Shown here in pieces: positions 4,053-53,266 of a stretch of DNA of 64,000 bases (the first letter of the stretch is position 1; every line of letters starts with the position of its first letter). The stretch spans positions 13,080 to 77,079 of the forward strand of contig CAYSZD010000003.1 in assembly GCA_964435515.1 (NCBI GenBank), written 5' to 3'. Made by a program: the position numbers and the translations under genes. A model generated the notes under the pieces. The model saw only the letters and a program-made list of their open reading frames with translations. It did not search any database and had not been told where the DNA came from. Source of the DNA: an uncultured Gammaproteobacteria bacterium (lineage in GTDB: Bacteria; Patescibacteriota; Patescibacteriia; Patescibacteriales; UBA12465).

Positions 4053-5306
4053 ATGAATGATAAGCAACTAATGAAGTTGGTGCACAAAATATCCTATTAC
4101 CCCAAATTAAGATTAGAGATATTTAATTCTCTAAAAATAGGGCAGCAAAGAGATGTAATATTAAGACTTACCAAACATGTTCAATATGACATTGTCTCCC
4201 AATTAAAAAAAGCTGACTTTATCTCACTGCTAGAACATTTAGATAATGACGAGGCCACCGACTTGCTTCAACTATTGCCCAAAAAAACAGGCAATAACCT
4301 TATCAAACTATTAAATAGCTCGAGACAAGCCGAAATCTCTCTCTTATTCCAGTTTGATCCCAATACTGCCGCTGGTTTAATGAATTTAAACTATATTAAA
4401 GTTGAACTTGATGATAATTTAGCCTCAGTGGCTAAGCAAGTTCGAACTCATGAAAAACGCACGGGGAAGTTACCAATTATTCTTATTGTCAAAAGCGGGC
4501 AACTACTAGGTCATTTGCCTGGTCATCAACTTGGTTTTGGTAGGCCCAGAGAAAAGGTTGGTAAATATATTAAAAGAATAAAAACAGTTAAATATAACGC
4601 CGACATTAATCAAGTAATCAGTATCTTTGAAAATCACCCTCATGATAAGATTGTGGTAATAGGGGAAAGAAAAAAAGTTTTAGGACTAATCTATTCAGAT
4701 GATATTCTTCAAGCCTTACATGAACGTGAATCATCTTCTTTGTATGACTTTGCTGGTGTTAGCTCTGAGGAATCAGTTTTTGACCCAATTAAAAGTAAAG
4801 TACGTTCACGTTATAAATGGTTAATGATTAACTTAGGCACCGTCTTTTTGGCTTCTTTTACTGTTGGCTTATTTGATCAAACAATCGCTAAGTATGTCTT
4901 ATTGGCAGTTTATATGCCAATTGTAGCTGGTATGGGTGGTAATGCTGCTACACAGACTTTAGCTATTATGGTTCGGGGTATCACCTTAAAACAAATTGGT
5001 TTAAAAACCGCTTGGAAAACATTGAGAAATGAAATAGGAGCAGGGCTGATTAATGGTTTAATTAATGGTGTAATTGTCTCCTTAATTGTATTTTTAAAAG
5101 ATGGCGACTGGCGTATTGGTATTATCCTTGCAATTGCTATGATATTAAATCTGATCATCGCTGCTACTTTTGGTACTATGGTACCATTGATTATGAAAAA
5201 ATTAGGTAAAGACCCAGCTACTTCAGCAACAGTGTTTATTACCACGGCCACTGATATCTTTGGCTTCTTTGCCTTTCTTGGCATCGCCACACTAGTATTG
5301 AAATAA
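4053..5306 (+). CDS. mgtE: magnesium transporter MgtE
   Basis: N-terminal MgtE domain, a CBS-pair region and a C-terminal TM domain with GGNAATQTLAIMVRG. The TTG at 4038 is less likely as the start than ATG 4053. Confidence 0.9.
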   Translation: MNDKQLMKLVHKISYYPKLRLEIFNSLKIGQQRDVILRLTKHVQYDIVSQLKKADFISLLEHLDNDEATDLLQLLPKKTGNNLIKLLNSSRQAEISLLFQFDPNTAAGLMNLNYIKVELDDNLASVAKQVRTHEKRTGKLPIILIVKSGQLLGHLPGHQLGFGRPREKVGKYIKRIKTVKYNADINQVISIFENHPHDKIVVIGERKKVLGLIYSDDILQALHERESSSLYDFAGVSSEESVFDPIKSKVRSRYKWLMINLGTVFLASFTVGLFDQTIAKYVLLAVYMPIVAGMGGNAATQTLAIMVRGITLKQIGLKTAWKTLRNEIGAGLINGLINGVIVSLIVFLKDGDWRIGIILAIAMILNLIIAATFGTMVPLIMKKLGKDPATSATVFITTATDIFGFFAFLGIATLVLK

Positions 5307-5307
5307 T

Positions 5308-6495
5308 ATGGCTAATATTTTAGGTATTAAAACAGGACAAAATGATGCAAAAGCAGTAGAGGAGAAAGTTCAATCTTTCTTTAAGTCTTCTGCTAACAAT
5401 CAAATCGTTACCCCTAATCCTGAAATTATTCTCAAAAGCCAAGATGATGAAAAACTTTTCTATATATTAAACAATGCCACCCTTTCTCTGGCCGATGGCT
5501 TTGGCTTAAAAATAGCCGCTATCTTAAGCAAGCAAAAACTATTTCGCTACACTGGTGCCGATTTATTACCATACCTGCTTAAAGATGCTAATGACAATAG
5601 ACGTCGTCTACTTATTATCAACCGAAAAGATGGACTATCTAATAAATTGCTATTAGAAAAATATTTAAAGACTAATTATTCTAATATTCAATTTCTCATT
5701 CTTGAACTAGCCTCTCAAGAGAAAGTCCTAACAGAAATAGATGCGATTCAAACCTTCATGCCTGATTTAGCTATTTGTTTATTTGGTGCCCCTCATCAAG
5801 AAAAATATATTTTTGATTTATTAAATAAAGTAAAATGCCTAAAAATTGGAGTAGGTTTAGGTGGAGCTTTTGATTTTCTAACAGGAAAAATAAAAAGAGC
5901 TCCTAAATTAATGAGACAATTAGGTTTAGAATGGTTATTTAGATTAATAAAACAACCCCATAGATGGCGTCGTATTTGGAGGGCCACTTTCGTATTTCTC
6001 ACTAAATCAATTTACTGGATATTTATTCTACCAAATTTATATCGTCCTAATGTAGCTATTCTAATTTATAAAAACAGTGAAAAAGGCAGGGAAGTATTAA
6101 TCGTAGAAAGACAAGGACATGAAAATCATTGGCAAATTATTCAAGGAGGCAGAGATAATTTAAGTATTAAAGAAGCGGGTATTAAAGAATTAAAAGAAGA
6201 AACAAATATTAGTGATTTTATCATCAAAGGTATTTATCCAAATTTATATCGCTATGAATTTGATAAAGAATTTGGGAAATATGAAAATCCTTTCAATAAT
6301 CGCCACTACGGCTATAAGGGTCAAAAACAAAGTCTGCTAATTGTTGAATTTACTGGCGATGACAGTCAAATAAAAATTAATTTTTGGGACCATAGCGCAT
6401 GGAAATGGGTCACGGAAAATCAGTTTATTGCCAGCATACATGAAAAACGACAAGCAGCTGGAACAATATACCTAAAAAAATTACAAGAATTATAA
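5308..6495 (+). CDS. fusion protein: WecG/TagA/CpsF-family glycosyltransferase (GT26) plus a C-terminal Nudix-like hydrolase
   Basis: N-terminal half carries TPNPEII...LADGFGL, FGAPHQEKYI and GLEWLFRLIKQPHRWRR, which are GT26 hallmarks. A hydrophobic linker (FVFLTKSIYWIFILPNL) follows. The C-terminal part has WQIIQGGRDNLSIKEAGIKELKEETNI, an RppH-like Nudix box that is two residues short of the canonical spacing. Confidence 0.75.
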   Translation: MANILGIKTGQNDAKAVEEKVQSFFKSSANNQIVTPNPEIILKSQDDEKLFYILNNATLSLADGFGLKIAAILSKQKLFRYTGADLLPYLLKDANDNRRRLLIINRKDGLSNKLLLEKYLKTNYSNIQFLILELASQEKVLTEIDAIQTFMPDLAICLFGAPHQEKYIFDLLNKVKCLKIGVGLGGAFDFLTGKIKRAPKLMRQLGLEWLFRLIKQPHRWRRIWRATFVFLTKSIYWIFILPNLYRPNVAILIYKNSEKGREVLIVERQGHENHWQIIQGGRDNLSIKEAGIKELKEETNISDFIIKGIYPNLYRYEFDKEFGKYENPFNNRHYGYKGQKQSLLIVEFTGDDSQIKINFWDHSAWKWVTENQFIASIHEKRQAAGTIYLKKLQEL

Positions 6496-7836: not shown

Positions 7837-8364
7837 ATGGGACTATTTGGTAATAAAAAAATGGGTGAAGATCCTTCTATTAAAAGGGAAGCGTCTGAAA
7901 CCCCAAGAAGCAAAGAAACTGCTCAAGCGGAATTAATGGAAAAATTTGGGTTAAGAAAGACCTCAGATTTTCAACTAGCCCTACAAAAAGGAGAAATCGA
8001 GAAGGCTAAAAATTGGCTAACATATATTATAGACAACAAAGAAAAATTTCCTCAATACTTATCTACTTGGGACAATTGGTTAAATGACCGTCAAAATGAA
8101 ATTAAGCTTTATAAGGAACTAAAAGAAAATGGTTCCTTAGAAAAGATGGAACACCGCAGCAAAGAAGAAGCTCAAGCCGAACTAAAAGAAAAATTTGGCT
8201 TTGCTGACACTAAAGGTTTTAGAAATGAACTGCAAAGTAACATACAAAATGCTGAAGCTTGGTTAAATTATATCATAGCTAACAAGCTTCGCTTTCCTCA
8301 ATATTTATCAACTTGGGATAATTGGTTAAGTGATAGACAACAAGAATTAGCTCAAGCAAAATAA
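7837..8364 (+). CDS. hypothetical protein built from a tandem duplication of an ~83-aa unit
   Basis: The two units are SKETAQAELMEKFG...NWLTYIIDNKEKFPQYLSTWDNWLNDRQNE and SKEEAQAELKEKFG...AWLNYIIANKLRFPQYLSTWDNWLSDRQQE. Confidence 0.6.
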   Translation: MGLFGNKKMGEDPSIKREASETPRSKETAQAELMEKFGLRKTSDFQLALQKGEIEKAKNWLTYIIDNKEKFPQYLSTWDNWLNDRQNEIKLYKELKENGSLEKMEHRSKEEAQAELKEKFGFADTKGFRNELQSNIQNAEAWLNYIIANKLRFPQYLSTWDNWLSDRQQELAQAK

Positions 8365-8377
8365 AAATTATTTCAAC

Positions 8378-8406
8378 AAAAAAATTCGGTATATACCGAA
8401 TTTTTT
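8378..8406. terminator. bidirectional terminator between convergent genes
   Basis: Perfect palindrome AATTCGGTAT/ATACCGAATT flanked by an A7 run and a T6 run. Confidence 0.75.
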
Positions 8407-8419
8407 GATACTAAATTAA

Positions 8420-9379
8420 TTATTGTAGCTTCCTGTTTTCATGAACCCTACGATGAACGTCGCTTAGTTGTTTGTTGGTTACATGAGTATATATCTGAGT
8501 GGTAGCAATATTACTATGACCCAAAAACTCCTGCACTGTGCGTAAATCTACTCCTTCGTTAAGAAGGTCAGTGGCAAATGAATGCCTTAAGGTATGAGGG
8601 GTTGCCATAACTGGTAATCCTGTAATTTTAACATATTTTTTAACTATATTCTCAATACTTTTTACTGTTAATCTTCTTGATTCAGTGGACTTAGTACTAC
8701 CTGGTTTATAGTTAATGAATAAAGCTGGGTCAAAATCTTTACGAACTTCTAAATAGGCCTTTAAAGCCTTTATCGCCCTAGAAGAGAAGTAGACTGTCCT
8801 AATTTTAGAGCCTTTACCAACTACGGCTATCTCTAATGAATCTTGACCTTCTTTAATGCGTAATTGCTCTAAATTTAAAGCCACTAATTCAGCCACACGT
8901 AAGCCAGTAGAAAAGAGAGTTTCTAACAAAGCTCTATCTCTCAAACCTATGGCAGTAGAACTGTCAGGAGCAGAAAGAAGGGCAGACAACTGATCTAATT
9001 TTAAAAACTTAATTTCCTTATCACCCCTATCTTTAGCCAACTTTACTTTTGATGGTGGCAGGGAAGAAATATCCTTTTCAACAAAGAATTCTAGAAGTGA
9101 GCGAAGAGCAATTAAATAATAGTTTTGCGTACTTTTTTTTAAAGCCTTCTTAGTTCTAGTATCTATATGTCTTGACAAAAACACCTTATAATGCCATATA
9201 TGATCAACGCTTAATTCAGCTGGTTTTAGGTCACTTAAAGCATTATCCTGAAGCCAATTAAAAAATTTACGCAAAAAACGTGTATAGTTTTCCTGAGTTT
9301 TGCTAGATAATCCTTTTTCTATTTCTGAATAATCTAAAAAATCAATTAAATATTTGCTAATAGCTTTTTGTTCCTTCAT
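8420..9379 (-). CDS. xerC: tyrosine recombinase, XerC/XerD family
   Basis: C-terminal catalytic region HTLRHSFATDLLNEGVDLRTVQEFLGHSNIATTQIYTHV. Also an N-terminal SAM-like core-binding domain and RDRALLETLFSTGLRVAEL. Confidence 0.9.
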   Translation of the reverse strand: MKEQKAISKYLIDFLDYSEIEKGLSSKTQENYTRFLRKFFNWLQDNALSDLKPAELSVDHIWHYKVFLSRHIDTRTKKALKKSTQNYYLIALRSLLEFFVEKDISSLPPSKVKLAKDRGDKEIKFLKLDQLSALLSAPDSSTAIGLRDRALLETLFSTGLRVAELVALNLEQLRIKEGQDSLEIAVVGKGSKIRTVYFSSRAIKALKAYLEVRKDFDPALFINYKPGSTKSTESRRLTVKSIENIVKKYVKITGLPVMATPHTLRHSFATDLLNEGVDLRTVQEFLGHSNIATTQIYTHVTNKQLSDVHRRVHENRKLQ

Positions 9380-12996: not shown

Positions 12997-15003
12997 TTAA
13001 AAGCCAGAAATACCAACAGATATTTCAGGCTGACCAGAAATAGTAGAATAACCAACAGAAATTATATTTTGAAAATCTTTTGTAAATGAAAAGAAACTTT
13101 TTTTCTCATTGCCAACTTCATCAAATATCTTTATCAATGATCCTCCACCAGGACCATCACCAGTAATTATCTCCGCCTTACCGTCACCATCTAAATCGCC
13201 AGCAGTAACCTTTACTCCTCCTCTAAAATTTTTATCATAAGCGAAAAAATGATTAATAAATTCACCCCTCTCATTGAAATAACGAACATGAGGACCGCCA
13301 CCATAACCAGCGCCAGTAATTATTTCCGCCTTACCATCACCGTTAACATCAGCTGCGCTCATATTAACTCCACCCCTAAAATTCTTATCATAAGCGAAAA
13401 AATTTAATAATGAACGACCGTTAGAATCAAAGACTCTCACCTGAGGACCGCCACCAGAACCAGCACCAACTATAATTTCTGGAAAAGAATCACCATTTAT
13501 ATCAGCTATCGCTAAAGAAGCTGAGCCTTTAAAGCCTGGAGCAAATGGTCTTATGGTCCACATATTTTGACCATCTCTTTGTCGAGTTAGTAATCCTTTG
13601 TCTAAATATATATAATCAATTTTACTATTATCAAAAAATTTACCCAATATAACATCACTACCAGCCGGTATAGAAGTAATATAAGAGAAAAAACCATTAC
13701 GAGCCTGTTCGCCTTCTGAATCAAAAACTCTTAAAAATGAACCATTAACAAAACTACTTCCCTGCCAAGCATTCAACTTTTTAAGCAATACGATTCCGTC
13801 TTGAGCATCTAAATTTAAATAATTTATTTTTAAACCATTATTAATTTTTGGATCCTGATTACCTTTAATTTTTTCAAATTCTTCTTTGCTAAAAACAAAA
13901 TTTTGCTTTTTATCAGTTGAGTTTAAAATAACCAAACCATTCTCAAAATCACGTCGCCATAATCCAGGCTCAATCTTTGTACTTCCATTTTTTAAAATAT
14001 TATAAGGCTTTGATTGAGCTAAACCTAAATTTACATCATATTCATCATACCACCATAATTGAGCGTGATTAGTAATATCATAATCAAAACTATAATATCC
14101 ATCGCCTAACAATGTACTGCTTAAACCAAAACGGAAAAGACGATAATCATTTTCATTTTTTTTATTAATATTAATAACAGATACATTAGGCTCTTTGTTT
14201 AAACTAGGTAATTTTAAATAAGATTCCATAGAACCTTGCCACGTTCCTCCATTTTCCCAGCTAGAAGGAAAACTTTCTAGCATCATACCATTCAGTAATC
14301 CTTGATAGGGCCAATGTATGCGTCCATTACCTATTACTATAAACTCTGAACCACACAATTCTCTAGTCAAACGTAACATTTTTTCAAAACCCTCAGCCCA
14401 AATAGTATCAGCGTGCTTAGAATCATCTTTAATACCGTCTCTATTTAAATCAATATTACTATTATTAACCCAAGCTACATCACCCCAGGTATTATCATAG
14501 AAAACCCCGTCCCAGAGACCAGAACTAAAAATTTTATCTTTAATAAAACGAGGCAGGAATTCATTAAATAATAAATTATCTTTATTCCTGCCCGATTCAT
14601 TACTTAAATTAAACATTGAGGTAAAAGGCCAATTAACCACTGCCTTACCATTTTGATCTTTTAGGCGCCAATCCTCAATAATTTGCTCAGATAATTCTTG
14701 ACGTAAAAAAGCATTATTATAATAATCAGCTTCATTAATAATTTCTTGAGCGGTAATATAAGCTAAAATCTTTACCTTAGGATTAATCGTTCTTATTTTC
14801 CTTATTAACTCTGGGTTATTTATTTGATTTTCCATGTCTAAAATAACAAGATCCCAACGCGCTAAAGAAATAGCCTCAGCTTCAGTTAAATCCCATTTAA
14901 GAAAATAATTAGCTAAACGAGGATAATCAGATTGAGTTGAAGCTGACACTGAAAACGGTAGAACAAAAGATATAAGAATAATTAATGAGACAAAATATTT
15001 CAT
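12997..15003 (-). CDS. secreted protein: N-terminal putative glycoside-hydrolase-like domain plus C-terminal FG-GAP/VCBS repeats
   Basis: Signal peptide present. Three repeats: DINGDSFPEIIVGAGSGGGPQVRVFD, DVNGDGKAEIITGAGYGGGPHVRYF and DLDGDGKAEIITGDGPGGGSLIKIFD. The N-terminal assignment is tentative. Confidence 0.65.
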   Translation of the reverse strand: MKYFVSLIILISFVLPFSVSASTQSDYPRLANYFLKWDLTEAEAISLARWDLVILDMENQINNPELIRKIRTINPKVKILAYITAQEIINEADYYNNAFLRQELSEQIIEDWRLKDQNGKAVVNWPFTSMFNLSNESGRNKDNLLFNEFLPRFIKDKIFSSGLWDGVFYDNTWGDVAWVNNSNIDLNRDGIKDDSKHADTIWAEGFEKMLRLTRELCGSEFIVIGNGRIHWPYQGLLNGMMLESFPSSWENGGTWQGSMESYLKLPSLNKEPNVSVININKKNENDYRLFRFGLSSTLLGDGYYSFDYDITNHAQLWWYDEYDVNLGLAQSKPYNILKNGSTKIEPGLWRRDFENGLVILNSTDKKQNFVFSKEEFEKIKGNQDPKINNGLKINYLNLDAQDGIVLLKKLNAWQGSSFVNGSFLRVFDSEGEQARNGFFSYITSIPAGSDVILGKFFDNSKIDYIYLDKGLLTRQRDGQNMWTIRPFAPGFKGSASLAIADINGDSFPEIIVGAGSGGGPQVRVFDSNGRSLLNFFAYDKNFRGGVNMSAADVNGDGKAEIITGAGYGGGPHVRYFNERGEFINHFFAYDKNFRGGVKVTAGDLDGDGKAEIITGDGPGGGSLIKIFDEVGNEKKSFFSFTKDFQNIISVGYSTISGQPEISVGISGF

Positions 15004-16283: not shown

Positions 16284-17894
16284 TTATAAAGTTTCTCCGC
16301 CAAAATTTGCTAATAGACTACCCAAAGCAGCTGAATTTTTTGGTAATTCTTGATTAGATTCTAAGCTTTTTAGCTCTGATTTGTCAATATTAGCCTCTTC
16401 TTGCTTGTTATCAGATAATTCTAATTTTTCATCTAATATAGCATCAATTTGCACTTTAGCATTATAAACCTCCGACAAAGTATCTTCTGTTAAAGATTTG
16501 ATAGCAGCACTAATTATTCTATCTCGATGAAATTTATATTTAAAATGTAGAGTCATTATTCCGCTCTTTAAAGCACTAGGCAGACAATTTTGTAATACAA
16601 AAGATAAAGAATGATTATGTTTTTTTATTTTCACCAAGACCTCTGGCCACCGAGTCAAAACTTCTTCTTGTGTTAAATCAAGAGCTAGGTTTTTTATAAT
16701 TTCTTTATTTTCTTTTTTATCATCACTAATTTCTTTGACTGATATTTTAGGACTAACCGTTAAAGGTTTGCTTCCACTTGTCACTGGATCATTGTTTTTT
16801 GCAGTCGGAAGACATAATTCCACCACAGCAATTTCAATAGCCAACTGATTAATGTTATTAAGTCCAATTCTAGCAAGTTCTAAAAATTTCTTTAACATCC
16901 TCAAAGTCTCAGACAGACTACAATCTTTAGCTGCTTTTGTAATCTTTATCTCTAATTGCTCACCCAAATCTAAACTTAACTTTTCTGCTAAACCAGGCTG
17001 TAGATTTTGTAACATTATTTTACGCAATAAGAACAAAATATCTTCTAAAAAATTTTTAAAATTAATTCCATTATCAGCTAATGTATTTATTATACTAATA
17101 GCCGTAGCTGCGTCTTGACGAGATAGAGCGTCAATTATATCTAAAGCCTCATGTTGGTTATGTCTTGGCAATACTAGCTCAGCGGTTTCAGCGCTAATTT
17201 TCTTTTCTCCTAAAGCTAATACTTGACCAAAAAGACTTTCAGCATCTCTTAAATGCCCACCTGATTGCTTAGCAATATTTTCTAAAACAGCAGTTTCTAC
17301 CTCAATCTTTTCAGCTTGAGCTATAATTTTTAATTTTTTAACAATCTCCTGAGAACTTATCCGTCTAAAATCAAAACGTTGACACCGGGAAATAATTGTT
17401 AAAGGTACTTTATGAGCTTCAGTAGTACAAAGAATAAAAACAATATGCTTTGGTGGCTCTTCTAACGTTTTAAGTAAAGCGTTAAAGGCATTAATAGATA
17501 ACATGTGAACCTCATCAATAATAAAAACTTTTGTTTTTAAATAACTAGGAGCTAAACGTACAGAAGCAATAATATTATCTCTAACATTATCAACACCAGT
17601 ATTAGAAGCGGCGTCTATTTCCATAACATCCAAGGCCTTACCCAGTTTTATACTAGAACAAGCCTGGCACTCACCGCAGGGTTCTGATTCCCCATCTTTA
17701 CGATTCTCACAATTAATTGATTGTGCCAAGATACGAGCCATACTTGTTTTACCAACAGCTCGAGGACCACAAAAAAGATAGGCATGAGCTAAAGTATTAG
17801 TCGCTATCTCATTTTGCAAAGTTACTTTTAAATGATTTTGACCCAAAATCTCACTAAATTTTTGTGGTCGATAATTACGATATAAAGCAGACAT
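16284..17894 (-). CDS. dnaX: DNA polymerase III subunit gamma/tau
   Basis: YRPQKF, Walker A GPRAVGKTS, zinc module CGECQAC, DEVHML and SRCQRF. Confidence 0.93.
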   Translation of the reverse strand: MSALYRNYRPQKFSEILGQNHLKVTLQNEIATNTLAHAYLFCGPRAVGKTSMARILAQSINCENRKDGESEPCGECQACSSIKLGKALDVMEIDAASNTGVDNVRDNIIASVRLAPSYLKTKVFIIDEVHMLSINAFNALLKTLEEPPKHIVFILCTTEAHKVPLTIISRCQRFDFRRISSQEIVKKLKIIAQAEKIEVETAVLENIAKQSGGHLRDAESLFGQVLALGEKKISAETAELVLPRHNQHEALDIIDALSRQDAATAISIINTLADNGINFKNFLEDILFLLRKIMLQNLQPGLAEKLSLDLGEQLEIKITKAAKDCSLSETLRMLKKFLELARIGLNNINQLAIEIAVVELCLPTAKNNDPVTSGSKPLTVSPKISVKEISDDKKENKEIIKNLALDLTQEEVLTRWPEVLVKIKKHNHSLSFVLQNCLPSALKSGIMTLHFKYKFHRDRIISAAIKSLTEDTLSEVYNAKVQIDAILDEKLELSDNKQEEANIDKSELKSLESNQELPKNSAALGSLLANFGGETL

Positions 17895-17907: not shown

Positions 17908-20451
17908 TTATTGTTTAAGAGGTGATGGCGAATCCATAACTATCTCAGTTCGCCTAATAATATTAGCTTCAACAATTGAACGATCTTGACCAAATTTTAA
18001 GCGGCTCAAAGTTCTTATCTTAGTTGACATATCAGGACGCGCTACACCAAGCAATGGCCAAACGGTTTTTATAGAAAATGGTCGAGTCGCACTATTATCA
18101 ACTAATAATTTAATATAGGCCGTTCCTTTATCAATATTAATTAGATCATAGGCGTTAAAAACAGGTGAAAATTCTTTAACTAAAAATTCGGCATCTTCTG
18201 TACCAATTTTAAAACTAATCATTGTGCCCACGTTACCAAAAACAGCATCTTTAATTTCGGTATTATTATTCTTGCTCAACTGGCCAATATACTGATGGGC
18301 AATAATTAGATTTAAAGCATATTTTCTAGCTTCAGATAAAATCTGACAAATAGATGAAGTAGTAAAGTTCTGAAACTCATCAATATAAAGATAGAAATCT
18401 TTTCTATCTTCCGCTTTCATATCAGTACGAGACAAAGACGCCATTAATATTTTACCAACAATAATCATACCCAAAAGATAAGCATTCATTTCACCAACTA
18501 CACCTTTAGGTAGATCGATTAACAATATTTTTTGACGATCCATTAAATCACGAAAGTTGAAAGAGCTTTTTTGCTGACCAATAATTGGACGCATCATGTC
18601 ATTAGAAATGAAAGCAGTAAGTTTAGAAGTGATATAAGGAACAATGTTCGCTAAAGCAGCATCACCGCCAGCCTTCTCAGCTTCTTTCTTCCAAAAATCC
18701 ACCACCGTTCTATTCTTACACCTAGATAATTTTAGACGTCTAAAATTCTCATCTGATAAAACTTTAGGTATCTCCATTAAAGTAGAACCACTCTCAGGAT
18801 CTTCCATAATTAACAATAGAGCATTTCTCATATACTGCTCAAACATTGGCCCACCTGTCTGCTTTAAATCATATAATTTATCAAAGATACCAATCATTTC
18901 ATTAATCACAAAACTCTTTTGTTCTGGATAGCGAGGGTCATATTCTAATAGATTTAAAGATAAGGGTCTTTCGGTATCAGCTGGTGAAAAAATCACCACA
19001 TCTTCTGCTCTTTCGGGCGGAATTCTTTGTAGAATATCTTCAATTAAATCTCCATGAGGGTCAAGAACACAGACCCCTTCTCCATTTTGAATATCTTGAA
19101 CAGCCATATTGGTTAACAAAACAGATTTACCAACACCAGATTTACCAATAATATAAGTATGTCGACGCCTATCTTGCCCCTTCATTCTTATCTCTTTATT
19201 AACACCTCGATAGACATTATTGCCTAACAATAGACCTTCATTAGGAAGATCAGCCGGAGCAGGAGCACTTTTAGCTGTTAGCCAAAGAATATTAGGTGTC
19301 TCCATGTGTTTTAAGGGTAAATGAAAAACACTGGTCAGTTCTTCGGTATTTAATAAAAAAGAAGCATCTTCACGAAAACGGCGATAAATAAAATCTTTAA
19401 TTTGTCTTTCCTGATTAGTCTTAATAGCCCTTGAAAAATGATTACCGTAACTATAATTATTAAATTCCGTAAAAACACTAGCAATATTTTCTAAATAAGC
19501 AGCTGATCTCTCTTTACTAGCAGTTGATACCACCAAACGTAAATTAACATCAAGACCAGCTCTTAAATTCTTTTCTTCAATTGTTTTTAAAGTCTCCTCC
19601 TCTACCGCTGATAAGTGTTTAGAGTTTTGTAATGAATTTGGATCTTGTGGTTTAGAGCTACTAGCTATAGACAAAGTATCTCCTATTTCTTTAAAAGCCT
19701 GACTAAGTCCAGATTGATTAATGCCATCACTAACTGAATTTTTCGTTTGTATCCGACGCACTATCTTCCTTACTTTACGATGCCAAGATCCAAGAGCGCT
19801 TCTAACTATATATTGAACAGCAATACTTTCATCTTTATCTAACTTAGACATCACATTAATCATGGAATTTAATGGATCAACCTCCATTTTCTGATAAGTG
19901 CGCAATGGCAAAACAAAGCTCTTTTTAGTTTTTAAATAAGCACTAGCTATATTACTATTTGCTTGAAAAATATTATAATCTTCAAGCTCTTCGATAACTG
20001 CCTCTGGATAGTAAGCGTTAATTTGTTGCTCCATATAACGAGATAACGCTCTCGGAGCAACTACGTAAAAAGCAATCTTATTAGCATGTGCTACTATCTC
20101 AAAAGAAAAATGATCATTTCTACCAAAAAACCAAGCAATAAATCCTTTTTGAGCCTTAAGTCCACCAATGCTAGCAAAAATAGTTTCACCTTTAGCTATC
20201 TCTTCCCTTGTCTGTTGTAGAGTGTCTTCCCTTTTTTCATCTTCTGGCTTTTCTTTAGGTAATTTAATTAAAAAAATTTGATGATCAAAATAATTATTAT
20301 TACCAAAAAAATGACGCACAATAAGACGAATAAATAATACGAGCAAGAGAAATAAAGCTAAAACTATAATCAAAACAAATAAACTAAGTAAAAGAGCTCC
20401 TGCTGGAGTGCTAAAAAAATCAGGGATTATTTGTTCAATTGATTGAAACAT
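17908..20451 (-). CDS. membrane protein with a C-terminal VirD4/TraD/TraG-like (type IV coupling protein-like) P-loop ATPase
   Basis: N-terminal TM helix plus an ~410-aa module. Then Walker A IIGKSGVGKSVLL, VLDPHGD, Walker B YLYIDEFQNF, and the AHQYIGQL / GNVGTMISFK motifs typical of the T4CP/FtsK-HerA superfamily. Confidence 0.7.
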   Translation of the reverse strand: MFQSIEQIIPDFFSTPAGALLLSLFVLIIVLALFLLLVLFIRLIVRHFFGNNNYFDHQIFLIKLPKEKPEDEKREDTLQQTREEIAKGETIFASIGGLKAQKGFIAWFFGRNDHFSFEIVAHANKIAFYVVAPRALSRYMEQQINAYYPEAVIEELEDYNIFQANSNIASAYLKTKKSFVLPLRTYQKMEVDPLNSMINVMSKLDKDESIAVQYIVRSALGSWHRKVRKIVRRIQTKNSVSDGINQSGLSQAFKEIGDTLSIASSSKPQDPNSLQNSKHLSAVEEETLKTIEEKNLRAGLDVNLRLVVSTASKERSAAYLENIASVFTEFNNYSYGNHFSRAIKTNQERQIKDFIYRRFREDASFLLNTEELTSVFHLPLKHMETPNILWLTAKSAPAPADLPNEGLLLGNNVYRGVNKEIRMKGQDRRRHTYIIGKSGVGKSVLLTNMAVQDIQNGEGVCVLDPHGDLIEDILQRIPPERAEDVVIFSPADTERPLSLNLLEYDPRYPEQKSFVINEMIGIFDKLYDLKQTGGPMFEQYMRNALLLIMEDPESGSTLMEIPKVLSDENFRRLKLSRCKNRTVVDFWKKEAEKAGGDAALANIVPYITSKLTAFISNDMMRPIIGQQKSSFNFRDLMDRQKILLIDLPKGVVGEMNAYLLGMIIVGKILMASLSRTDMKAEDRKDFYLYIDEFQNFTTSSICQILSEARKYALNLIIAHQYIGQLSKNNNTEIKDAVFGNVGTMISFKIGTEDAEFLVKEFSPVFNAYDLINIDKGTAYIKLLVDNSATRPFSIKTVWPLLGVARPDMSTKIRTLSRLKFGQDRSIVEANIIRRTEIVMDSPSPLKQ

Positions 20452-46481: not shown

Positions 46482-47513
46482 TTAATTAATCAAATTACTT
46501 TTATAAATACTGACCTCGGTCCTCTCAATTACTTTTTTCAACATTTTCACTGCTAGCACAGGGTATTCTCCAACCGTTGTTTCATCAGAAAGCATGATCA
46601 TGTCAGCTCCATCGTATACAGCGTTAGCGATGTCTGATACCTCGGCTCTAGTAGGATGTGGATTTTTAATCATTGAGGTCATCACTTGAGTAGCAATAAT
46701 AACAGGACGATTGTGCCAATGAGCATGACGCACTAAATTCTTTTGTATAATAGGTAATTCTTCAATAGGAACTTCAATGCCCAGGTCACCACGAGCAACC
46801 ATAATCATATCAGAGCTAGAAATTATTTTATCAATATTTTTCAAAGCTACGCCTCTTTCAATTTTAGAAATTATTTTTGTCTTACTTTTCTTACCAATCA
46901 TTTTTCTTAATCTATGAACATCTTCAGCTGACTGAACAAATGAGAGAGCAATATAATCCATTCCTGTCTTCAAGCCAAACTTTACATCTTTTATATCTTT
47001 ACTAGTTAATCCTCCTTTTTTAATAATCGTATCAGGAACATTAATGCTTTTGCGAGAATTTAAAATTCCACCATTAACTACTTCGGCTTTAATAATTTTT
47101 TTATCAACAGATAATACCTTTAACTCAATAGCACCATTACACAAAAAAAGCATGGCTCCCTTCTTCATATGTCGATATAAATCAGGACTATCAATCGGTA
47201 TAATATCTCCTTCCTTTTCATAGGCTTGACGAGTATAACTAAAATTATATATTTCAGCATCATGCATTAAAATACCATCTTCTGGCATTTGCCCTACCCT
47301 AATTCTTGGACCCTGAAGATCTAACATAATTTTAATCTCTTTCTTCTTAGCTTCATTATATAACTGTACTGTCTTTTTAATGCGACGATATTGAGGATAG
47401 CTAGCATGTGAAAAATTCACTCTTACAACTTCTACTCCAGCGTCTAAAAGAGCTCTTAATTCTTCTCGAGAATCACTTTTTGGTCCAATGGTAGCAACTA
47501 TTTTGGTAAGCAT
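46482..47513 (-). CDS. pyk: pyruvate kinase, short form lacking the C-terminal (C) domain
   Basis: KIVATIGP, RVNFSH and MVARGDLGIE. It ends after the A-domain at 343 aa, and eno starts 15 nt downstream, so no room remains for a C-domain remnant. Confidence 0.85.
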   Translation of the reverse strand: MLTKIVATIGPKSDSREELRALLDAGVEVVRVNFSHASYPQYRRIKKTVQLYNEAKKKEIKIMLDLQGPRIRVGQMPEDGILMHDAEIYNFSYTRQAYEKEGDIIPIDSPDLYRHMKKGAMLFLCNGAIELKVLSVDKKIIKAEVVNGGILNSRKSINVPDTIIKKGGLTSKDIKDVKFGLKTGMDYIALSFVQSAEDVHRLRKMIGKKSKTKIISKIERGVALKNIDKIISSSDMIMVARGDLGIEVPIEELPIIQKNLVRHAHWHNRPVIIATQVMTSMIKNPHPTRAEVSDIANAVYDGADMIMLSDETTVGEYPVLAVKMLKKVIERTEVSIYKSNLIN

Positions 47514-47527
47514 AAATGTTTTTTATT

Positions 47528-48685
47528 CTAATTTTTTAATTTTTGTAACTCTAACATTAACTGTTGATAAAACTCAAGATTATTTAAACTGGCTAATTTC
47601 TGACCTAATGGTTCTTTGAGTTTAAACAAATGATACAAATAGGCTTTGGTATAATTACGTAATTCAGCAAACTGACTATTTTTATTAATAGGAGAAAAAT
47701 CTTCTCTAAAAATTGCATTATTTATATTAACAGTTTTATAGAAAGCCGGAAAGCTCTTGATAGCTCCTGCCTTTTTAGGCAAGTTAGTAAATCCCTTAAA
47801 TTTTGGCATAAAATAGAATAAACGACCATGTCTACCCTCTCTAGTAGGGATTACACAATCAAACATATCCCAGCCCATAAGATACGAACGATAGATATCT
47901 TCTGGTAAACCCACTCCTAAAGCAAAACGAATAGCTTTTTTAGGTAAAAAGGAAGCAGTTTTAAATAAAGTATCTGCTAAAAAATTACCATCTTCATCAA
48001 TTGGTCGAGCCCCAAAACCATAAATATCAAATCCAATCTTAATAAGTTCCTGAGCGCAAAAACTACGTAAATCTTCATGCTCGCCCCCTTGCACTACCGC
48101 TGTTAATAAAGGTCTATTAGCATCAGTTAATTTTCTCTTTTTCACTTGTTTTATATATTCCAGCTTACATCTTTTAGCCCAAGCAATACTACGATGTACG
48201 GCAATTTCCAACTTTTCTCGTGGCCAGTCATTAGGGGGACAATCATCTAAACAAACCATCATATCAACTCCTAAGTCAAATTGTATTTGAATAGACTTTT
48301 CTGGGCTTAAGTGATGCCAAGAACCATTAAGCGGAGATTTAAAAGAAACTTGTTCATCATCCGCCTTACCCATTGAGCCAGTTTTGCGATGCACTAAAGA
48401 AAATATCTGAAAGCCACCAGAGTCAGAAAGTATGGGTCCTGGCCAATCCATAAAACTATGCACACCACCAGCTTTTTTAATTATATCTGTGCCTGGCTGT
48501 AAATAAAGATGAAAAGTATTCACCACTAAAGCCTTAGTGTCTGAAAGTAATAAATCATTCTTAGTTAAGCCTTTAATAAAAGCCCTAGTCGCATCAGGCA
48601 TAAAGAAAGGTGTTTTTAATACACCTTTCTTAGTATGAACGCGCAGTTTACGTAAATTAAATTTATTTTTATTAATACTACTCAT
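47528..48685 (-). CDS. tgt: tRNA-guanine transglycosylase family protein with a degenerate Zn site
   Basis: TPFFMPDAT, NTFHLYLQPG, LSDSGGFQ, LDDCPP, VVQGG and MFDCVIPTREGRHGR are conserved. The CxCxxC...H Zn ligands are replaced (SQFAEL...N). Confidence 0.8.
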   Translation of the reverse strand: MSSINKNKFNLRKLRVHTKKGVLKTPFFMPDATRAFIKGLTKNDLLLSDTKALVVNTFHLYLQPGTDIIKKAGGVHSFMDWPGPILSDSGGFQIFSLVHRKTGSMGKADDEQVSFKSPLNGSWHHLSPEKSIQIQFDLGVDMMVCLDDCPPNDWPREKLEIAVHRSIAWAKRCKLEYIKQVKKRKLTDANRPLLTAVVQGGEHEDLRSFCAQELIKIGFDIYGFGARPIDEDGNFLADTLFKTASFLPKKAIRFALGVGLPEDIYRSYLMGWDMFDCVIPTREGRHGRLFYFMPKFKGFTNLPKKAGAIKSFPAFYKTVNINNAIFREDFSPINKNSQFAELRNYTKAYLYHLFKLKEPLGQKLASLNNLEFYQQLMLELQKLKN

Positions 48686-48686
48686 A

Positions 48687-50717
48687 TTATTCTACTCGAC
48701 CATTATTAGATAATCCAGCAATTTCATCATCTTCTAATTTAGTTGTTTTAGCCTGACTCTTTCTAGAAATTTCCGATTTAGTAATAATATCAGTTGCCTT
48801 AACAACTGAACCAGGTGATAATATTAATATTTTATCACGATCACTTTCCTTAGGGGTAAGGCTAATACTAAATTCGGCATCTGCTCGATAAACAGATAAA
48901 GGTAGATAACCTAAACGCCAAGTTACTATCCTGCTATCTTCATCATAAAAAATCCGTCCTACATTAGTGTTAGAATCTGATTCCCAGTTAATACCAGCGG
49001 GCAAGCTCATAAATACCTCAGTATCCTCTAAATCATGTAAATTATTTTTAATAGTCCACATAACCCTAACGCTAGTTTTTTCACCTACTCTAGGAGGTAA
49101 AGGACCTGAGCCGACTGGTAAATTATCATCGTTGAAATAAACAATTTTTTCGCTTAAAGACAAATCGCTATTTAGCTTGCTATGAATAGTATTGCTACGA
49201 TTATCTTCACTATCATTTTCAAGCGGAGTATTCAAGCCATATTGAGCATAGCTAACAATCTCATTATCAGCCGACATATCATTTAAAGAAAAATCATTCA
49301 AATTTAAACTAAATTTAATTTCACCTGATTCTCCCGGCGCAAGTTCAGCTAAAATTGGTAAATCCTCTTTTGTCCAAACAATGGCATTACCCGCCACAGA
49401 ACCACCTAAAGGATCCTTTAAACTAGACCAATCTATAAATTGACCTTTTACAACAGCCATTAATACTACATTATATAAAACCGCTTCCCCATTATTAGCA
49501 TAGCTAAGACTATAATTTAACTCAGAGCCAAAATCTATTGCTTGATCAGATTTATTATCATTTAATGATAGTTCTATATTTAAATCACTACTGACTAAAT
49601 CAAAGGATAATGTTTTTTCCCAAAAGATAAATTCTTTATTATTCTCATCTTTTTGGAAAAGTTTAAAACTAATATCTTCTTTTTCATCCTTCTTTTCTTT
49701 AAAGCTAAAGTCCAAAGGTACGCTTACGCGCTCACTAGATTCTAATGGTAAATTAGTAATAGACCATAGAAAATCCCCTGTTTTTTCAATTACCACTTTC
49801 TTATCATCAACGACCTCCTCGCTACTACTAGCATTATCACCCTGATTGCCATTACTACTTGTAGTTTTATTAATTTGTAAATTATCAGAACCTGTTATTT
49901 CTAAATATACATTTTGTAAATTATTATTTTGAAAAGCAGAAAAATTTAACTTAAGTTCATTATTTTTTTCTACTAGAGCAGTATTAATATAATCCAGATT
50001 GAGCAGAAAACCCAGACCAGATATAACAGTATTGGCGCTGGCTTCTTTTTTAAATTCACTAGAAAAATTTGAAGGCGTATAAGTAAAACGAGCATTAATA
50101 ATATTAGCCGAGTCGAGTGCGGAAACTAAATAACCACTAATCTTTAAAACTGATTTTTCTTTTGGATTTATAGTATCAATTTTCCACTTTTTAAAAGTAT
50201 CTAAGACTGGATCACTTTCAGTCAGTACAAAACTATCCGGCAAAACTAACTCTACCGTTACATCACTTAAAGTTAAATCACTATTATTTTCATAGACAAT
50301 TTCATAGCTCATTGCCTCACCAGCTACTACTTTTTCTGGGGCATTAATATAAAAGAGTAAGTCGTCTTCACTGTTTGAATTCTGAAAATAGAAAAAATAA
50401 GCTCCATAAATAGCACAAGCTATAATAGTTAACACAAATACTTTCTTAAAAAAAGCTATTAAAGGTATTCTTTTTCTTTTTTTTACTTTACTAACATCAA
50501 CTGGCTCACCACGATTATCACTATAGATAGCAGAAAGATTATTATCCGTGTCTTCTAATATCGCTTCCCTTTTTACCAAATCATCAAAACGAGAAACATC
50601 ATCCGATTCTGGTAATGGTCTTTCCAAAAAAGAAGCTTCAAGAGAAGACTGATCAAGTTTCAATTTTTTACCCTTACTCATCTTTTTGTCACTTTTCTTG
50701 TTTTTTTCAATAGACAT
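48687..50717 (-). CDS. large TM-anchored beta-rich surface protein; paralogue of ORF 11908-12981
   Basis: 676 aa: charged N-terminus, one TM (VFVLTIIACAIYGAYFFYF), then repeated segments of the type MSYEIVYENNSDLTLSDVTVELVLP and LNYSLSYANNGEAVLYNVVLMAVV. The C-terminal ~150 aa is alignable to ORF 11908-12981. Confidence 0.6.
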   Translation of the reverse strand: MSIEKNKKSDKKMSKGKKLKLDQSSLEASFLERPLPESDDVSRFDDLVKREAILEDTDNNLSAIYSDNRGEPVDVSKVKKRKRIPLIAFFKKVFVLTIIACAIYGAYFFYFQNSNSEDDLLFYINAPEKVVAGEAMSYEIVYENNSDLTLSDVTVELVLPDSFVLTESDPVLDTFKKWKIDTINPKEKSVLKISGYLVSALDSANIINARFTYTPSNFSSEFKKEASANTVISGLGFLLNLDYINTALVEKNNELKLNFSAFQNNNLQNVYLEITGSDNLQINKTTSSNGNQGDNASSSEEVVDDKKVVIEKTGDFLWSITNLPLESSERVSVPLDFSFKEKKDEKEDISFKLFQKDENNKEFIFWEKTLSFDLVSSDLNIELSLNDNKSDQAIDFGSELNYSLSYANNGEAVLYNVVLMAVVKGQFIDWSSLKDPLGGSVAGNAIVWTKEDLPILAELAPGESGEIKFSLNLNDFSLNDMSADNEIVSYAQYGLNTPLENDSEDNRSNTIHSKLNSDLSLSEKIVYFNDDNLPVGSGPLPPRVGEKTSVRVMWTIKNNLHDLEDTEVFMSLPAGINWESDSNTNVGRIFYDEDSRIVTWRLGYLPLSVYRADAEFSISLTPKESDRDKILILSPGSVVKATDIITKSEISRKSQAKTTKLEDDEIAGLSNNGRVE

Positions 50718-50767
50718 GTATTTAAAAGAAGGTTAATAGAATATAAATATAATCTATTACCATCAAA

Positions 50768-53266
50768 CTAATTTTCAAGCAAAACTGCCTTTAAAATATC
50801 TCTGTTTAACATAAACTCATCAGACCAAGATGAATTATCTGGATAATTCCAAATATTACGCCAAGACGCTGGGATGCTTAAAGATAAATTATATTGAGCT
50901 GCTTTAGCGCCAGGCTGTTTTTGCACTAGCATAGAAAATGGGTAATAGCCAGATCTTTCACCAGCTAAGAGAGTTTGCAGCTTATCTAAATAATTATGCT
51001 GTTCTAATTCATTTTTTTTCAATTTAAATGGTAATCGGTATTTTAATGTTATAACAGAAGTCTCTCCGGGATCAGTCATAAGCCAATTAGCATAAACCGT
51101 TTTACCACTTTCTTTATATATTTTTGTAGCACTTTGTATATGAGTGAAAGCTTTAGCTTCATTTTCAGCAATAGCTGGAAAAACTAACCACTCAGGATCA
51201 GGCGTATCAAAATACATAGCATCAGGCTGTTTAAATCCGCTAGCTGATAATAACAAACTACCTTCTGGAACATACACCCTTAACCAATCTACATTTCTCA
51301 CTCCGCTAAATACTTCATTTTTTAAACCAGTATGTGTGCGATATATGGTAAGCGTATCAATAACACTACCGTCACTTAAAATCTCTGCCTGATGCTCAAC
51401 GCGATCCAACATGCGCCTATCAGTTTTTTGTCCAGCAATATTTGTATGAACCAACATTAAATAATCATGAGGCGCTGCTTTAACGGAAGCGTCTAAATCA
51501 TATTTATGCAAACTAGCTTGTAAATCTTCATCACTAAAATATAATAAAATATTTTTAGCAGCTAAATTTTTCTCTAAAGAAATTAATAGGGCTGGCATAT
51601 TTTCCGCACTCAAAACCTGAGGTAAACGCTCCATAATTTTTACCATTAAATCACCGATAATTTTTTTAGGTTCATTTTCAGGGCTATCAGGAAGACTTAA
51701 CACTAGTTCTGGATGACTTAATTCTAAATTTGGTTTTTCTACCACACTCTGTAATAATTCCCAAAAATTATCAGCATTAATACTAAGACCATATTCTTCC
51801 TGCAGGTCTATCTCACCGCTAATACGTAATAAATCTTCTAAAACATCCGGGGTAAAGCTAATAACACCATCAACCGTAGGCCCATCACTTTTTTCATAAA
51901 ACCACATTAAAGACCTAGCTGTTAATGGCCAATCAGGCCACCAATTAGCATCCCATAAATACCATCTCGGATTTACCAACCATAAAGGTTCTGGTGACTG
52001 AACAAAAGTACGCATACCAGCTTCAGTATCATATGAACCACCACTTGGAACCTCTAATTTTCTAATAGCTCCGTCTCTTATATCAACTAAAGCATAGCTA
52101 CCTAAAAATCCACCCGAGGCTCTCATTTCGGTATTATTTTGAAAAACTAACAAATAACGTTTATCCTGACTAACCCCTAAAAATGATTTAATCGACTGAG
52201 CTGAAGATAATAAAAGATCTAAAGACTGTACTGCTAAATCAGCTTGAGATCTAAAAGTGATAAATTGACTTTGATATTCCTGTGGCAATAAATCAAAGTT
52301 AATACTATAAAGTTCAGATTGAATAGTTTTAGCGTTATTTTGTGCCCGACCACCATAAACAACAAAAGAATCTATTAAAGTTCCCCAACTTTTATCTGTC
52401 TCTTGTTTTTCTAATGCAGCTCCAGCTAAACTAAGATTCTCCCCCATCTCCGCAGCTGCCATGCCAATGTTTATAAATTTTTTACTAAAAGCTGCCATTT
52501 TAATTTCTGGATCACGCGCTAAAGTGGCTAAAGGTAAAAGCCAATCATTTACTCCACTAAGAGAGTTTTGGGCAGCACTAAAATTATCTGCTGCTAAACT
52601 GAAATTACTAGCCGCATCTTGCCATGACATATGACTAGCATTATCAGCTGCATCAGCTAAATTTTCTACCCCCGATAAAGATTCACCCAAAACACTTGAT
52701 TTAAGATTTGGTAAATCAATTATTTTAAAATAAGCTAAAATTTTAAATGGAGCAATAATAATTAAAAGCACTAAAGAAAAAGCAAAAATTGAACGATACC
52801 ATTTTATGAGCACTTGATCTTTCTCTGAATGTTTTTTTGTATTAACACTTTTTTGTAATTTAGATAAATTCTTCCAAGCATAACTATGAAAATCTTGAAA
52901 ATAATATTTTGCACTCTTAAAGGCTGGCACTTGATAGCCTAAACGTTTTTTACGACGATAAAAAGAATATTTAGATAATAAATGAGAATGAAAATTAACG
53001 CGCCAACTTCTTTTATGTTGTGTATTTATAAAATTTCTTTGCCAAAATTTAACTTTAGTAGACTTTATACTAATAGATAAAATAAATTTATTTCTTTTAA
53101 ATTTTACAGTTTTAACTTTCTTTTCAGCTTTCAAATTATTATTTATCTTTTCTACTTTATTATCTTTTTCTTTAATTATAGATCTTAAATCAACTAAAAA
53201 AGAGTCAGATTGTTTAACTGGCTGATAATTGCTTTTATTCTTTTGAGAGTCAAATAATCCAAACAT
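50768..53266 (-). CDS. DUF4012-like membrane-anchored protein
   Basis: 832 aa with a basic N-terminus and one TM (IFAFSLVLLIIIAPFKIL). The core segment NNTEMRASGGFLGSYALVDIRDGAI matches my recollection of the DUF4012 signature. Confidence 0.55.
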   Translation of the reverse strand: MFGLFDSQKNKSNYQPVKQSDSFLVDLRSIIKEKDNKVEKINNNLKAEKKVKTVKFKRNKFILSISIKSTKVKFWQRNFINTQHKRSWRVNFHSHLLSKYSFYRRKKRLGYQVPAFKSAKYYFQDFHSYAWKNLSKLQKSVNTKKHSEKDQVLIKWYRSIFAFSLVLLIIIAPFKILAYFKIIDLPNLKSSVLGESLSGVENLADAADNASHMSWQDAASNFSLAADNFSAAQNSLSGVNDWLLPLATLARDPEIKMAAFSKKFINIGMAAAEMGENLSLAGAALEKQETDKSWGTLIDSFVVYGGRAQNNAKTIQSELYSINFDLLPQEYQSQFITFRSQADLAVQSLDLLLSSAQSIKSFLGVSQDKRYLLVFQNNTEMRASGGFLGSYALVDIRDGAIRKLEVPSGGSYDTEAGMRTFVQSPEPLWLVNPRWYLWDANWWPDWPLTARSLMWFYEKSDGPTVDGVISFTPDVLEDLLRISGEIDLQEEYGLSINADNFWELLQSVVEKPNLELSHPELVLSLPDSPENEPKKIIGDLMVKIMERLPQVLSAENMPALLISLEKNLAAKNILLYFSDEDLQASLHKYDLDASVKAAPHDYLMLVHTNIAGQKTDRRMLDRVEHQAEILSDGSVIDTLTIYRTHTGLKNEVFSGVRNVDWLRVYVPEGSLLLSASGFKQPDAMYFDTPDPEWLVFPAIAENEAKAFTHIQSATKIYKESGKTVYANWLMTDPGETSVITLKYRLPFKLKKNELEQHNYLDKLQTLLAGERSGYYPFSMLVQKQPGAKAAQYNLSLSIPASWRNIWNYPDNSSWSDEFMLNRDILKAVLLEN

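Follow-up and report, generated by a model that had tools for sequence, protein, structure and literature searches.

Can a bacterial tRNA-guanine transglycosylase (TGT) dispense with its structural zinc, and with the conserved loop of its base pocket, and still serve the queuosine (Q) pathway? The question is raised by the tgt gene in a 64-kb stretch of DNA (64,000 nucleotides; positions 13,080 to 77,079 of contig CAYSZD010000003.1, from a genome that GTDB places in Patescibacteriota). We refer to the whole stretch as the window and count positions from its first letter. A first-pass annotation made from the letters alone described the gene as a tgt homologue with substituted zinc ligands and an altered pocket, and considered either a different substrate or a structurally divergent, zinc-independent TGT. 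Based on profile searches, alignments, a structural model and gene neighbourhoods, we consider it likely that this gene encodes the orthologous tRNA-guanine(34) transglycosylase of a tiny, uncultivated, Falkowbacteria-like bacterium, which would insert preQ1, need no zinc and work with a remodelled pocket. The enzyme appears to be a Zn-independent variant of a known one, widespread in Patescibacteria, and not a new kind of system.

Identification of the tgt gene product

The Tgt protein matches Pfam PF01702 (TGT) with 325.5 bits over residues 14–381 and the NCBIfam Tgt equivalog TIGR00430 with 317 bits, just over the curated cut-off of 306.75 bits. The archaeosine model TIGR00432 gives 75.9 bits, below its cut-off of 350, and the protein terminates after the equivalent of the zinc subdomain, at 385 aa, without the C1, C2 and PUA domains of archaeal TGT (ArcTGT). 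Its top PDB sequence matches in HMMER are the TGTs of E. coli and Z. mobilis (E about 1e-70), and BLASTP aligns it over its full length, at 37% identity, with the Tgt encoded in the E. coli K-12 genome record. The register of the alignment was checked in three ways, by HMMER against the E. coli and Z. mobilis PDB chains, by pairwise alignment, and by BLASTP against E. coli K-12 Tgt; the three independent alignments agree on a single register. Every motif quoted in the first-pass annotation could be located in the protein and assigned residues and window coordinates, as follows (equivalences are to Z. mobilis TGT).

47528..48685, minus strand: tgt, 385 aa, ATG start; a single open reading frame (ORF), supported by Pfam, NCBIfam, the structural model and the ratio of nonsynonymous to synonymous substitution rates (dN/dS)
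48407..48427, minus strand: SDSGGFQ, residues 87–93; D88 corresponds to D102 (general acid/base), S89 to S103 and F92 to Y106
48380..48394, minus strand: five-residue insert VHRKT, residues 98–102, absent from the Tgt of E. coli and of Z. mobilis
48233..48250, minus strand: LDDCPP, residues 146–151; D147 corresponds to D156 (base recognition) and C149 to C158 (presumed bacterial-type pocket residue)
48083..48097, minus strand: VVQGG, residues 197–201; Q199 corresponds to Q203 (base recognition)
47993..48013, minus strand: pocket loop GARPIDE, residues 225–231, which replaces GGLAVGE (G229–E235)
47822..47866, minus strand: MFDCVIPTREGRHGR, residues 274–288; D276 corresponds to D280 (covalent nucleophile), and R282 and R285 to R286 and R289
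47744..47812, minus strand: 23-residue insert, residues 292–314, after the strand that follows the catalytic Asp, between the barrel and the C-terminal subdomain
47651..47686, minus strand: NKNSQFAELRNY, the former CxCxxC segment, residues 334–345; S337, F339 and L342 stand for C318, C320 and C323
47567..47593, minus strand: ASLNNLEFY, residues 365–373; N368 stands for the His ligand H349

The 120 best database relatives (61–95% identity) belong to Patescibacteria or Candidatus Falkowbacteria wherever they are named, are labelled ‘tRNA guanosine(34) transglycosylase Tgt’ by NCBI, and all carry both the Zn-free and the altered-pocket signatures. Frequencies for this clade are taken from an alignment of 100 sequences. 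The catalytic Asp pair of bacterial Tgt (Z. mobilis D280 and D102) is present as D276 and D88. The purine-recognition residues of bacterial Tgt are D102, S103, D156, Q203 and G230 (PMC5699537); D88, S89, D147 and Q199 are in place, and the equivalent of G230 is Ala226, fixed in the clade. Since G230 works through its backbone, alanine may be tolerated at this position. Other substitutions relative to bacterial Tgt are Y258F and M260L. We take C158, matched by C149, to act as a bacterial-type pocket residue, and R286 and R289, matched by R282 and R285, to be the residues through which Z. mobilis TGT, in its complex, touches the anticodon loop of the tRNA.

Loss of the zinc site

The annotation had proposed that all four zinc ligands are substituted, by Ser, Phe, Leu and Asn, and the three independent alignments bear this out. 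The Z. mobilis ligands C318, C320, C323 and H349 (C302, C304, C307 and H333 in E. coli) are replaced by S337, F339, L342 and N368, and the structural CxCxxC...H site of bacterial Tgt is therefore missing. A check for ligands that are present but shifted found none displaced: Cys is absent beyond residue 277, and the single His beyond residue 286, H352, is the equivalent of the dimer-interface H333 of Z. mobilis and not a metal ligand. The same replacements recur throughout the clade, with S337 in 100/100 sequences, Ile, Leu or Phe at position 339 in 98/100 and L342 in 99/100, while position 368 is Asn in 88 sequences and His in the other 12. From residue 316 to the end, 95 of the 100 sequences have no Cys at all. 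The pattern recalls the hydrophobic and hydrogen-bonding residues that substitute for structural zinc elsewhere, for example in the lid of adenylate kinase.

One other zinc module in the window bears on the cause of the loss. DnaX (window 16284–17894, minus strand) has an intact N-terminal Cys4 module (C62, C73, C76 and C79), which indicates that the change in Tgt is not part of a general, genome-wide purge of structural zinc; genome-wide zinc sparing was therefore dropped as an explanation.

Conservation, selection and fold

The residues needed for catalysis and recognition do not vary in the clade: D88, D276, S89, D147, Q199, C149, R282 and R285 are each found in 100/100 sequences. The dimer hot-spots of Z. 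mobilis TGT (W326, Y330, H333 and E339) are, as judged from the alignment, mostly kept along with the tRNA-contacting Arg residues, with H352 in 100/100 sequences, E358 in 91/100 and Tyr or Phe at position 349 in 100/100; the W326 position is occupied by Tyr, His or Asn. Values of dN/dS for tgt are 0.060 and 0.065 against the relatives at loci L087 and L088, respectively, similar to the 0.035 of the neighbouring pyruvate kinase gene.

An AlphaFold2 model of the protein has a mean predicted local distance difference test score (pLDDT) of 90, rising to 95–98 over the former zinc subdomain. Foldseek superimposes it on Z. mobilis TGT (1ozm/1pud) with template modelling (TM) scores of 0.82–0.85 over 382 columns. 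The Zn-free, GARP-type Tgt is thus a lineage-wide fixed trait and not a decaying gene, and a pseudogene reading was rejected on the dN/dS values and the conservation in the clade. The suggestion of a structurally divergent, Zn-independent TGT gains support from the ligand loss, the purifying selection and the confidently modelled subdomain, and it is plausible that the protein works as a Zn-free enzyme.

The remodelled pocket loop and the inserts

The proposed replacement of GGLAVGE by GARPIDE also proved correct, with G225, A226, R227, P228, I229, D230 and E231 aligning to G229–E235 of Z. mobilis. Within the clade, A226 and D230 are invariant (100/100), R227 is found in 97/100 and P228 in 99/100, and position 229, the equivalent of Val233, is always Val or Ile (100/100). 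Position 231, the equivalent of Glu235, is variable and most often Lys (52/100). As a pocket signature the loop stands, but its terminal E231 does not. What is lost is the preQ1-pocket loop of bacterial Tgt, in which GGLAVGE provides the Leu231/Ala232 peptide switch and Glu235. Structures from the Klebe group (2z1v and 1p0b) are said to show that the Leu231/Ala232 peptide of Z. mobilis TGT flips: in one state its NH serves N7 of guanine, in the other its C=O serves the preQ1 aminomethyl group, with Glu235 stabilising the switch. Both entries are among the structural matches of the Tgt model.

An insertion of about 20 aa after the catalytic Asp region had also been reported. It is present, as the 23 residues 292–314, and is modelled as coil with pLDDT 85–93; it is not a fixed feature, because segment 291–318 varies from 5 to 30 residues within the clade.

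Tgt variants across Patescibacteria

We compared 80 loci from species-representative genomes, many of them from the candidate phyla radiation (CPR). The Zn-free state combined with GARP[VI]D is found in Falkowbacteria-like loci (L001–L011, L016, L018–L020 and L027). An intact Cys3-His site (CCCH) combined with G[AG]RH[IV]D characterises Moranbacteria (L012–L015, L017 and L021–L026). A third group (L028–L030, L034, L035, L037–L040, L042 and L045–L049) is Zn-free with a canonical GGL[AS]VGE loop; its carriers are Kuenen-, Jackson- and Buchananbacteria, one Falkowbacteria metagenome-assembled genome and many unnamed Patescibacteria, and its ligand positions hold Ser, then Phe, Leu or Ile, then Leu, then Asn or His, or else a short deletion. 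Both features are canonical in Saccharibacteria, Portnoybacteria and non-CPR bacteria. Because Moranbacteria combine an altered pocket with zinc, and Kuenen-, Jackson- and Buchananbacteria a canonical pocket without it, the two changes are separable. Judging from these sequences, a Zn-free Tgt is a widespread CPR trait that is independent of the pocket change.

A broader sample of 138 full-length Tgt representatives, clustered at 50%, contains CCCH in 101 and lacks two or more ligands in about 30. The replacement residues vary by lineage (SCAA, SASQ, TGSA, IIAH and others), and the zinc site has therefore been lost repeatedly in bacterial Tgt, with particular frequency in the CPR. As to whether the window's substitutions are common in characterised Tgt enzymes, no characterised Zn-free Tgt was found, but they are common in the uncharacterised Tgt of Patescibacteria and of other bacteria.

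A mosaic origin was tested with domain-wise neighbour-joining (NJ) trees and a column bootstrap. The barrel of the window Tgt is 60% identical to the Moran type versus 45% to the Zn-free canonical CPR group, an order recovered in 100% of bootstraps. In the C-terminal subdomain, with the ligand columns excluded, it is 50.4% identical to the Zn-free canonical CPR group versus 47.0% to the Moran type, in 86% of bootstraps. This pattern is suggestive, not significant, of a mosaic gene or of subdomains that converged after metal loss.

Outside the CPR, the survey brought up a set of TGT-family proteins with the loop GFGGWP[LI]D, referred to here as the GGWP type, whose hosts are gut Clostridia, Eubacteriales, Defluviitaleaceae and Latescibacterota and whose NCBI name is only a family-level transglycosylase. 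In all five of their loci (L058, 4087–5915; L067, 8580–10489; L053, 18–1791; L079, 3122–4959; L036, 10001–11929) an FmrO-family gene (PF07091; 16S rRNA m7G1405-type methyltransferase) lies directly 3′ of the GGWP-type gene; upstream lie RsmH in L058 and an RsmI-like methylase in L067. Our searches found no literature on the GGWP-type/FmrO pair, which may constitute an undescribed RNA-modification gene pair.

Genomic setting and link to queuosine synthesis

The window has a low GC content (about 33%), a strong strand bias and housekeeping genes. Downstream of tgt are genes for pyruvate kinase, enolase, a membrane metallophosphoesterase and RlmN; upstream are genes for a DUF11-like protein, a DUF4012 protein and glycosyltransferases, and dTDP-sugar genes. 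The order DUF4012, DUF11-like, tgt, pyruvate kinase, enolase, metallophosphoesterase, RlmN is kept in Falkowbacteria relatives (60–66% identity), and a DUF11-like gene, often with DUF4012, precedes tgt in CPR loci with each of the four Tgt variants. None of the assemblies among the 80 loci contributed a second tgt copy. The shared gene position, together with the lack of any assembly with two copies, indicates that the variants are positional orthologues and not paralogues, and the window gene looks like the orthologue of the canonical CPR tgt. The association with the DUF11-like gene (676 aa), usually accompanied by the DUF4012 gene (832 aa; window 48687–53266 for the two, minus strand), extends to diverse CPR lineages (loci L001–L077); it is conserved whatever the Tgt variant.

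A link to Q synthesis comes from more distant members of the same type. In Candidatus Falkowbacteria bacterium RIFOXYC2_FULL_47_12 (MFGL01000010.1, locus L018) the gene order is queA (PF02547, 336 bits), queH (PF02677, 216 bits) and tgt, with tgt and queH overlapping by 8 nt. In loci L085 and L086 the order is queA, queH, a 23S rRNA intervening-sequence protein (23S-IVP) gene and tgt. The downstream Q genes queA and queH thus lie near tgt in L018 and in L085/L086, and QueA itself is common in Patescibacteria, to judge from the 120 of more than 8000 matches listed. The tgt products of L018 and L086 have GARPVD, the Zn-free signature S..L..L/NNLEFY and the insert; they share about 54% identity with the window Tgt, and their pocket residues are identical to its own. 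The L085 tgt (8174–9324) has a frameshift that divides it into products of 312 and 60 aa, whereas its L086 counterpart (5203–6360) is intact and encodes 385 aa; the frameshift is probably an assembly or sequencing error and not the mark of a pseudogene. PreQ1-tRNA is the substrate of QueA, whose product, epoxyqueuosine (oQ), is then reduced by QueH (PMC5699537). The queA-queH-tgt clusters therefore couple the Zn-free GARP-type enzyme to the canonical preQ1 → oQ → Q route. Neither in the window nor in 17 related loci did tRNA scans find genes for tRNAs with GUN anticodons.

Proposed function and alternatives

The sequence, its conservation, the fold, the orthologous position and the queA/queH operon linkage in relatives are established, and from them we infer the following mechanism. 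G34 of tRNAs with GUN anticodons (Asp, Asn, His and Tyr) would be exchanged for salvaged preQ1 by the standard double displacement, with D276 as covalent nucleophile and D88 as general acid/base. In the textbook enzyme a Cys3-His zinc pins the C-terminal dimerisation and tRNA-binding subdomain; with Ser, two hydrophobic residues and Asn in its place, the subdomain presumably relies on packing and hydrogen bonding, and the enzyme would have no zinc requirement. On the side of the base pocket that faces the 7-substituent, G-A-R-P-(V/I)-D takes the place of G-G-L-A-V-G-E. Pro228 would abolish the backbone NH of the Leu231/Ala232 switch, and with the switch-controlling Glu lost and Asp230 invariant, the pocket is probably locked carbonyl-out, which is the preQ1-binding state. 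The equivalents of C158, Arg286 and Arg289, together with Val or Ile at the Val233 position, appear to favour preQ1 insertion at G34 and not queuine salvage.

Several observations weigh against this proposal. The GARPIDE loop differs from that of all biochemically characterised TGTs, and Chong et al. (1995, cited in PMC9894224) are said to have found that single Zn-ligand mutants of E. coli Tgt lose Zn binding and activity. A Pfam scan of the window (ORFs of at least 90 aa, minus five short ORFs inside longer opposite-strand genes) found no queuosine-pathway genes and no Q-precursor transporters in the 64 kb, so that the earlier remark that no queuosine-precursor genes are seen nearby is true of the entire window, though untrue of relatives. 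Neither queA nor queH lies within 10 kb of tgt in the closest relatives (L001, L003–L009 and L027). Finally, the GGWP type, which comprises the nearest non-CPR relatives of the barrel, is always paired with an FmrO-like methyltransferase and is not named Tgt by NCBI, suggesting that this TGT branch may be functionally plastic.

Some of the same observations would fit an enzyme whose GARP[VI]D pocket alters the inserted base (preQ0, queuine or another salvaged base), the RNA position or even the nucleic acid, with DNA as target, in a subclade without canonical Q. At five of its seven positions the loop departs from GGLAVGE, with the new residues fixed across the clade, the equivalent of Glu235 is unconserved, the window's own subclade has no queA or queH near tgt, and the GGWP[LI]D relatives, which fall below NCBI's Tgt naming, have their FmrO-family partner in 5/5 loci. 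Yet the identical pocket occurs in the queA-queH-tgt clusters of L018 and L086, and QueA requires the aminomethyl group of preQ1-tRNA. The gene is in the canonical CPR tgt position, the equivalents of Arg286 and Arg289, with their presumed anticodon-loop contacts, are retained, and no FmrO-like gene is found in the window. The C158 equivalent and the bulky Val or Ile are determinants of the bacterial preQ1 type and differ from the GG[LS][AS]G pocket of queuine-salvaging TGTs (PMC11570991). The DNA variant of this alternative was dropped because the protein matches none of the PADLOC models for DpdA and defence, even at E ≤ 10; there are no dpd-like neighbours either, and the bacterial-type pocket and Arg residues are retained. 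The different substrate raised by the first-pass annotation (another base, tRNA position or DNA, as in DpdA) is thus unsupported, given the queA-queH-tgt clusters, the canonical gene position and the catalytic and recognition residues that are kept. A new substrate or DNA target for the window Tgt is unlikely, and we hold the alternative as a whole to be doubtful. A bolder version combines a mosaic of a Moran-like barrel and an older Zn-free C-terminal subdomain, common to Kuenen-, Jackson- and Buchananbacteria, with a GARP[VI]D loop that changes base chemistry, for instance by holding the pocket in the preQ1-type state, which would block the rebinding of guanine, or by admitting another 7-deazaguanine in the subclade without linked queA/queH; such a metal-free TGT of non-canonical specificity in Falkowbacteria seems improbable to us.

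Two further explanations concern the zinc site itself. It is very unlikely that a structural metal is still bound by a different set of residues. The subdomain does contain H352 and a number of Asp, Glu and Asn side chains that could be enlisted, and 12/100 clade members keep a His at the fourth ligand position, but 95/100 are without any Cys from residue 316 onwards, two of the replacements have aliphatic or aromatic side chains that are unable to ligate a metal, and H352 aligns with the dimer-interface His333 of Z. mobilis. That tgt is decaying or catalytically dead, or encodes a partner without catalytic activity such as eukaryotic QTRT2, is scarcely credible. The gene has lost a site that E. 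coli Tgt needs, and the genome is reduced and the organism probably symbiotic; on the other hand, the ORF is intact, dN/dS is 0.06, the catalytic residues are invariant across more than 100 sequence clusters, synteny is conserved and the structural model is confident. QTRT2 is not known to have the nucleophile, whereas both catalytic Asp residues are kept here. A Zn-free, preQ1-inserting Tgt is the reading we prefer.

Other features of the window

The pyruvate kinase encoded next to tgt (window 46482–47513, minus strand; 343 aa) is a pyruvate kinase barrel from end to end, without the C-terminal regulatory domain. Amid the housekeeping genes are a tyrosine recombinase/integrase (8420–9379) and a TraG/VirD4-like type IV coupling protein of 847 aa (17908–20451, minus strand), possibly what is left of a mobile element or of a DNA-uptake apparatus of the CPR. 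An ORF of 395 aa (window 5308–6495, plus strand) joins a WecG/TagA-type glycosyltransferase domain to a C-terminal NUDIX domain.

Significance

To our knowledge, all TGT enzymes studied biochemically or structurally bear a Cys3-His zinc, including bacterial Tgt, QTRT1/QTRT2, ArcTGT and DpdA. Searches on queuosine and TGT in Patescibacteria or CPR and on Zn-free TGT found no paper on a Zn-free bacterial Tgt; the nearest published statement concerns phage 9g DpdA, in which two of the four Zn ligands are missing (PMC5699537). In the accessible part of its supplementary tables, the ‘tgt-only’ survey of PMC11570991 mentions no CPR taxa.

A Zn-free clade that is under selection and linked to queA/queH would show that the zinc of TGT is purely structural and dispensable, and would supply a template for engineering metal-free TGTs. 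Queuosine modification in these ultra-small bacteria would be uncoupled from zinc supply at the Tgt step; zinc sensitivity of Q synthesis is known from elsewhere (PMC9894224). The Pro that is fixed in the switch loop would provide a test of the accepted model of guanine/preQ1 discrimination by bacterial TGT. Rules of annotation and structure-guided inhibitor design built on the zinc site or on GGLAVGE do not hold for much of Patescibacteria.

Comparison with known systems

Compared with bacterial Tgt (E. coli and Z. mobilis; EC 2.4.2.29), the window Tgt has the same fold, the same Asp pair and equivalents of D156, Q203, S103 and C158. It differs in having no Cys3-His site, Pro in place of the Ala232 NH and no conserved Glu235, and proteins of its type carry, ahead of the C-terminal subdomain, an insert whose length varies up to about 25 residues.

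Like the queuine-salvaging TGT of the Chlamydia trachomatis type, the window Tgt is encoded in a reduced genome, and the window has no de novo Q genes. In the Chlamydia-type enzymes queuine is admitted by a GG[LS][AS]G pocket, in which the residue that matches Val233 is small (PMC11570991). The window Tgt has no small residue there (Val or Ile in 100/100 of its clade). Queuine salvage of the Chlamydia type needs neither queA nor queH, whereas relatives of the window Tgt carry both.

Membership of the TGT superfamily is shared with DpdA, the DNA 7-deazaguanine transglycosylase of bacteria and phages. The preQ0 pocket of DpdA is ArcTGT-like, whereas that of the window Tgt is of the bacterial Tgt type and the protein scores as a Tgt equivalog; the neighbours of tgt are genes of glycolysis, the cell envelope and rRNA modification, and not dpd or DNA-metabolism genes.

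The uncharacterised GGWP-type proteins resemble the window Tgt in the loop (GGWP[LI]D), in a CLDxC motif and in an insert of about 20 residues, and form the sister group of its barrel in the NJ tree. Unlike it, they have an intact zinc site, are about 38–42% identical and lie outside the CPR tgt position.

Two further comparisons are with groups of uncharacterised CPR proteins. The Tgt of Moranbacteria (Candidatus Moraniibacteriota) has the closest barrel, a near-identical G[AG]RH[IV]D loop, a similar insert and the same DUF11-like neighbour; it keeps the full CCCH, unlike the window Tgt, and its C-terminal subdomain is only 47% identical. The Zn-free, canonical-pocket Tgt of other Patescibacteria shares with the window Tgt the ligand replacements, the sequence ELR...NNLEFY and the gene neighbourhood, and differs from it in the GGL[AS]VGE loop and in a barrel that is about 43–45% identical.

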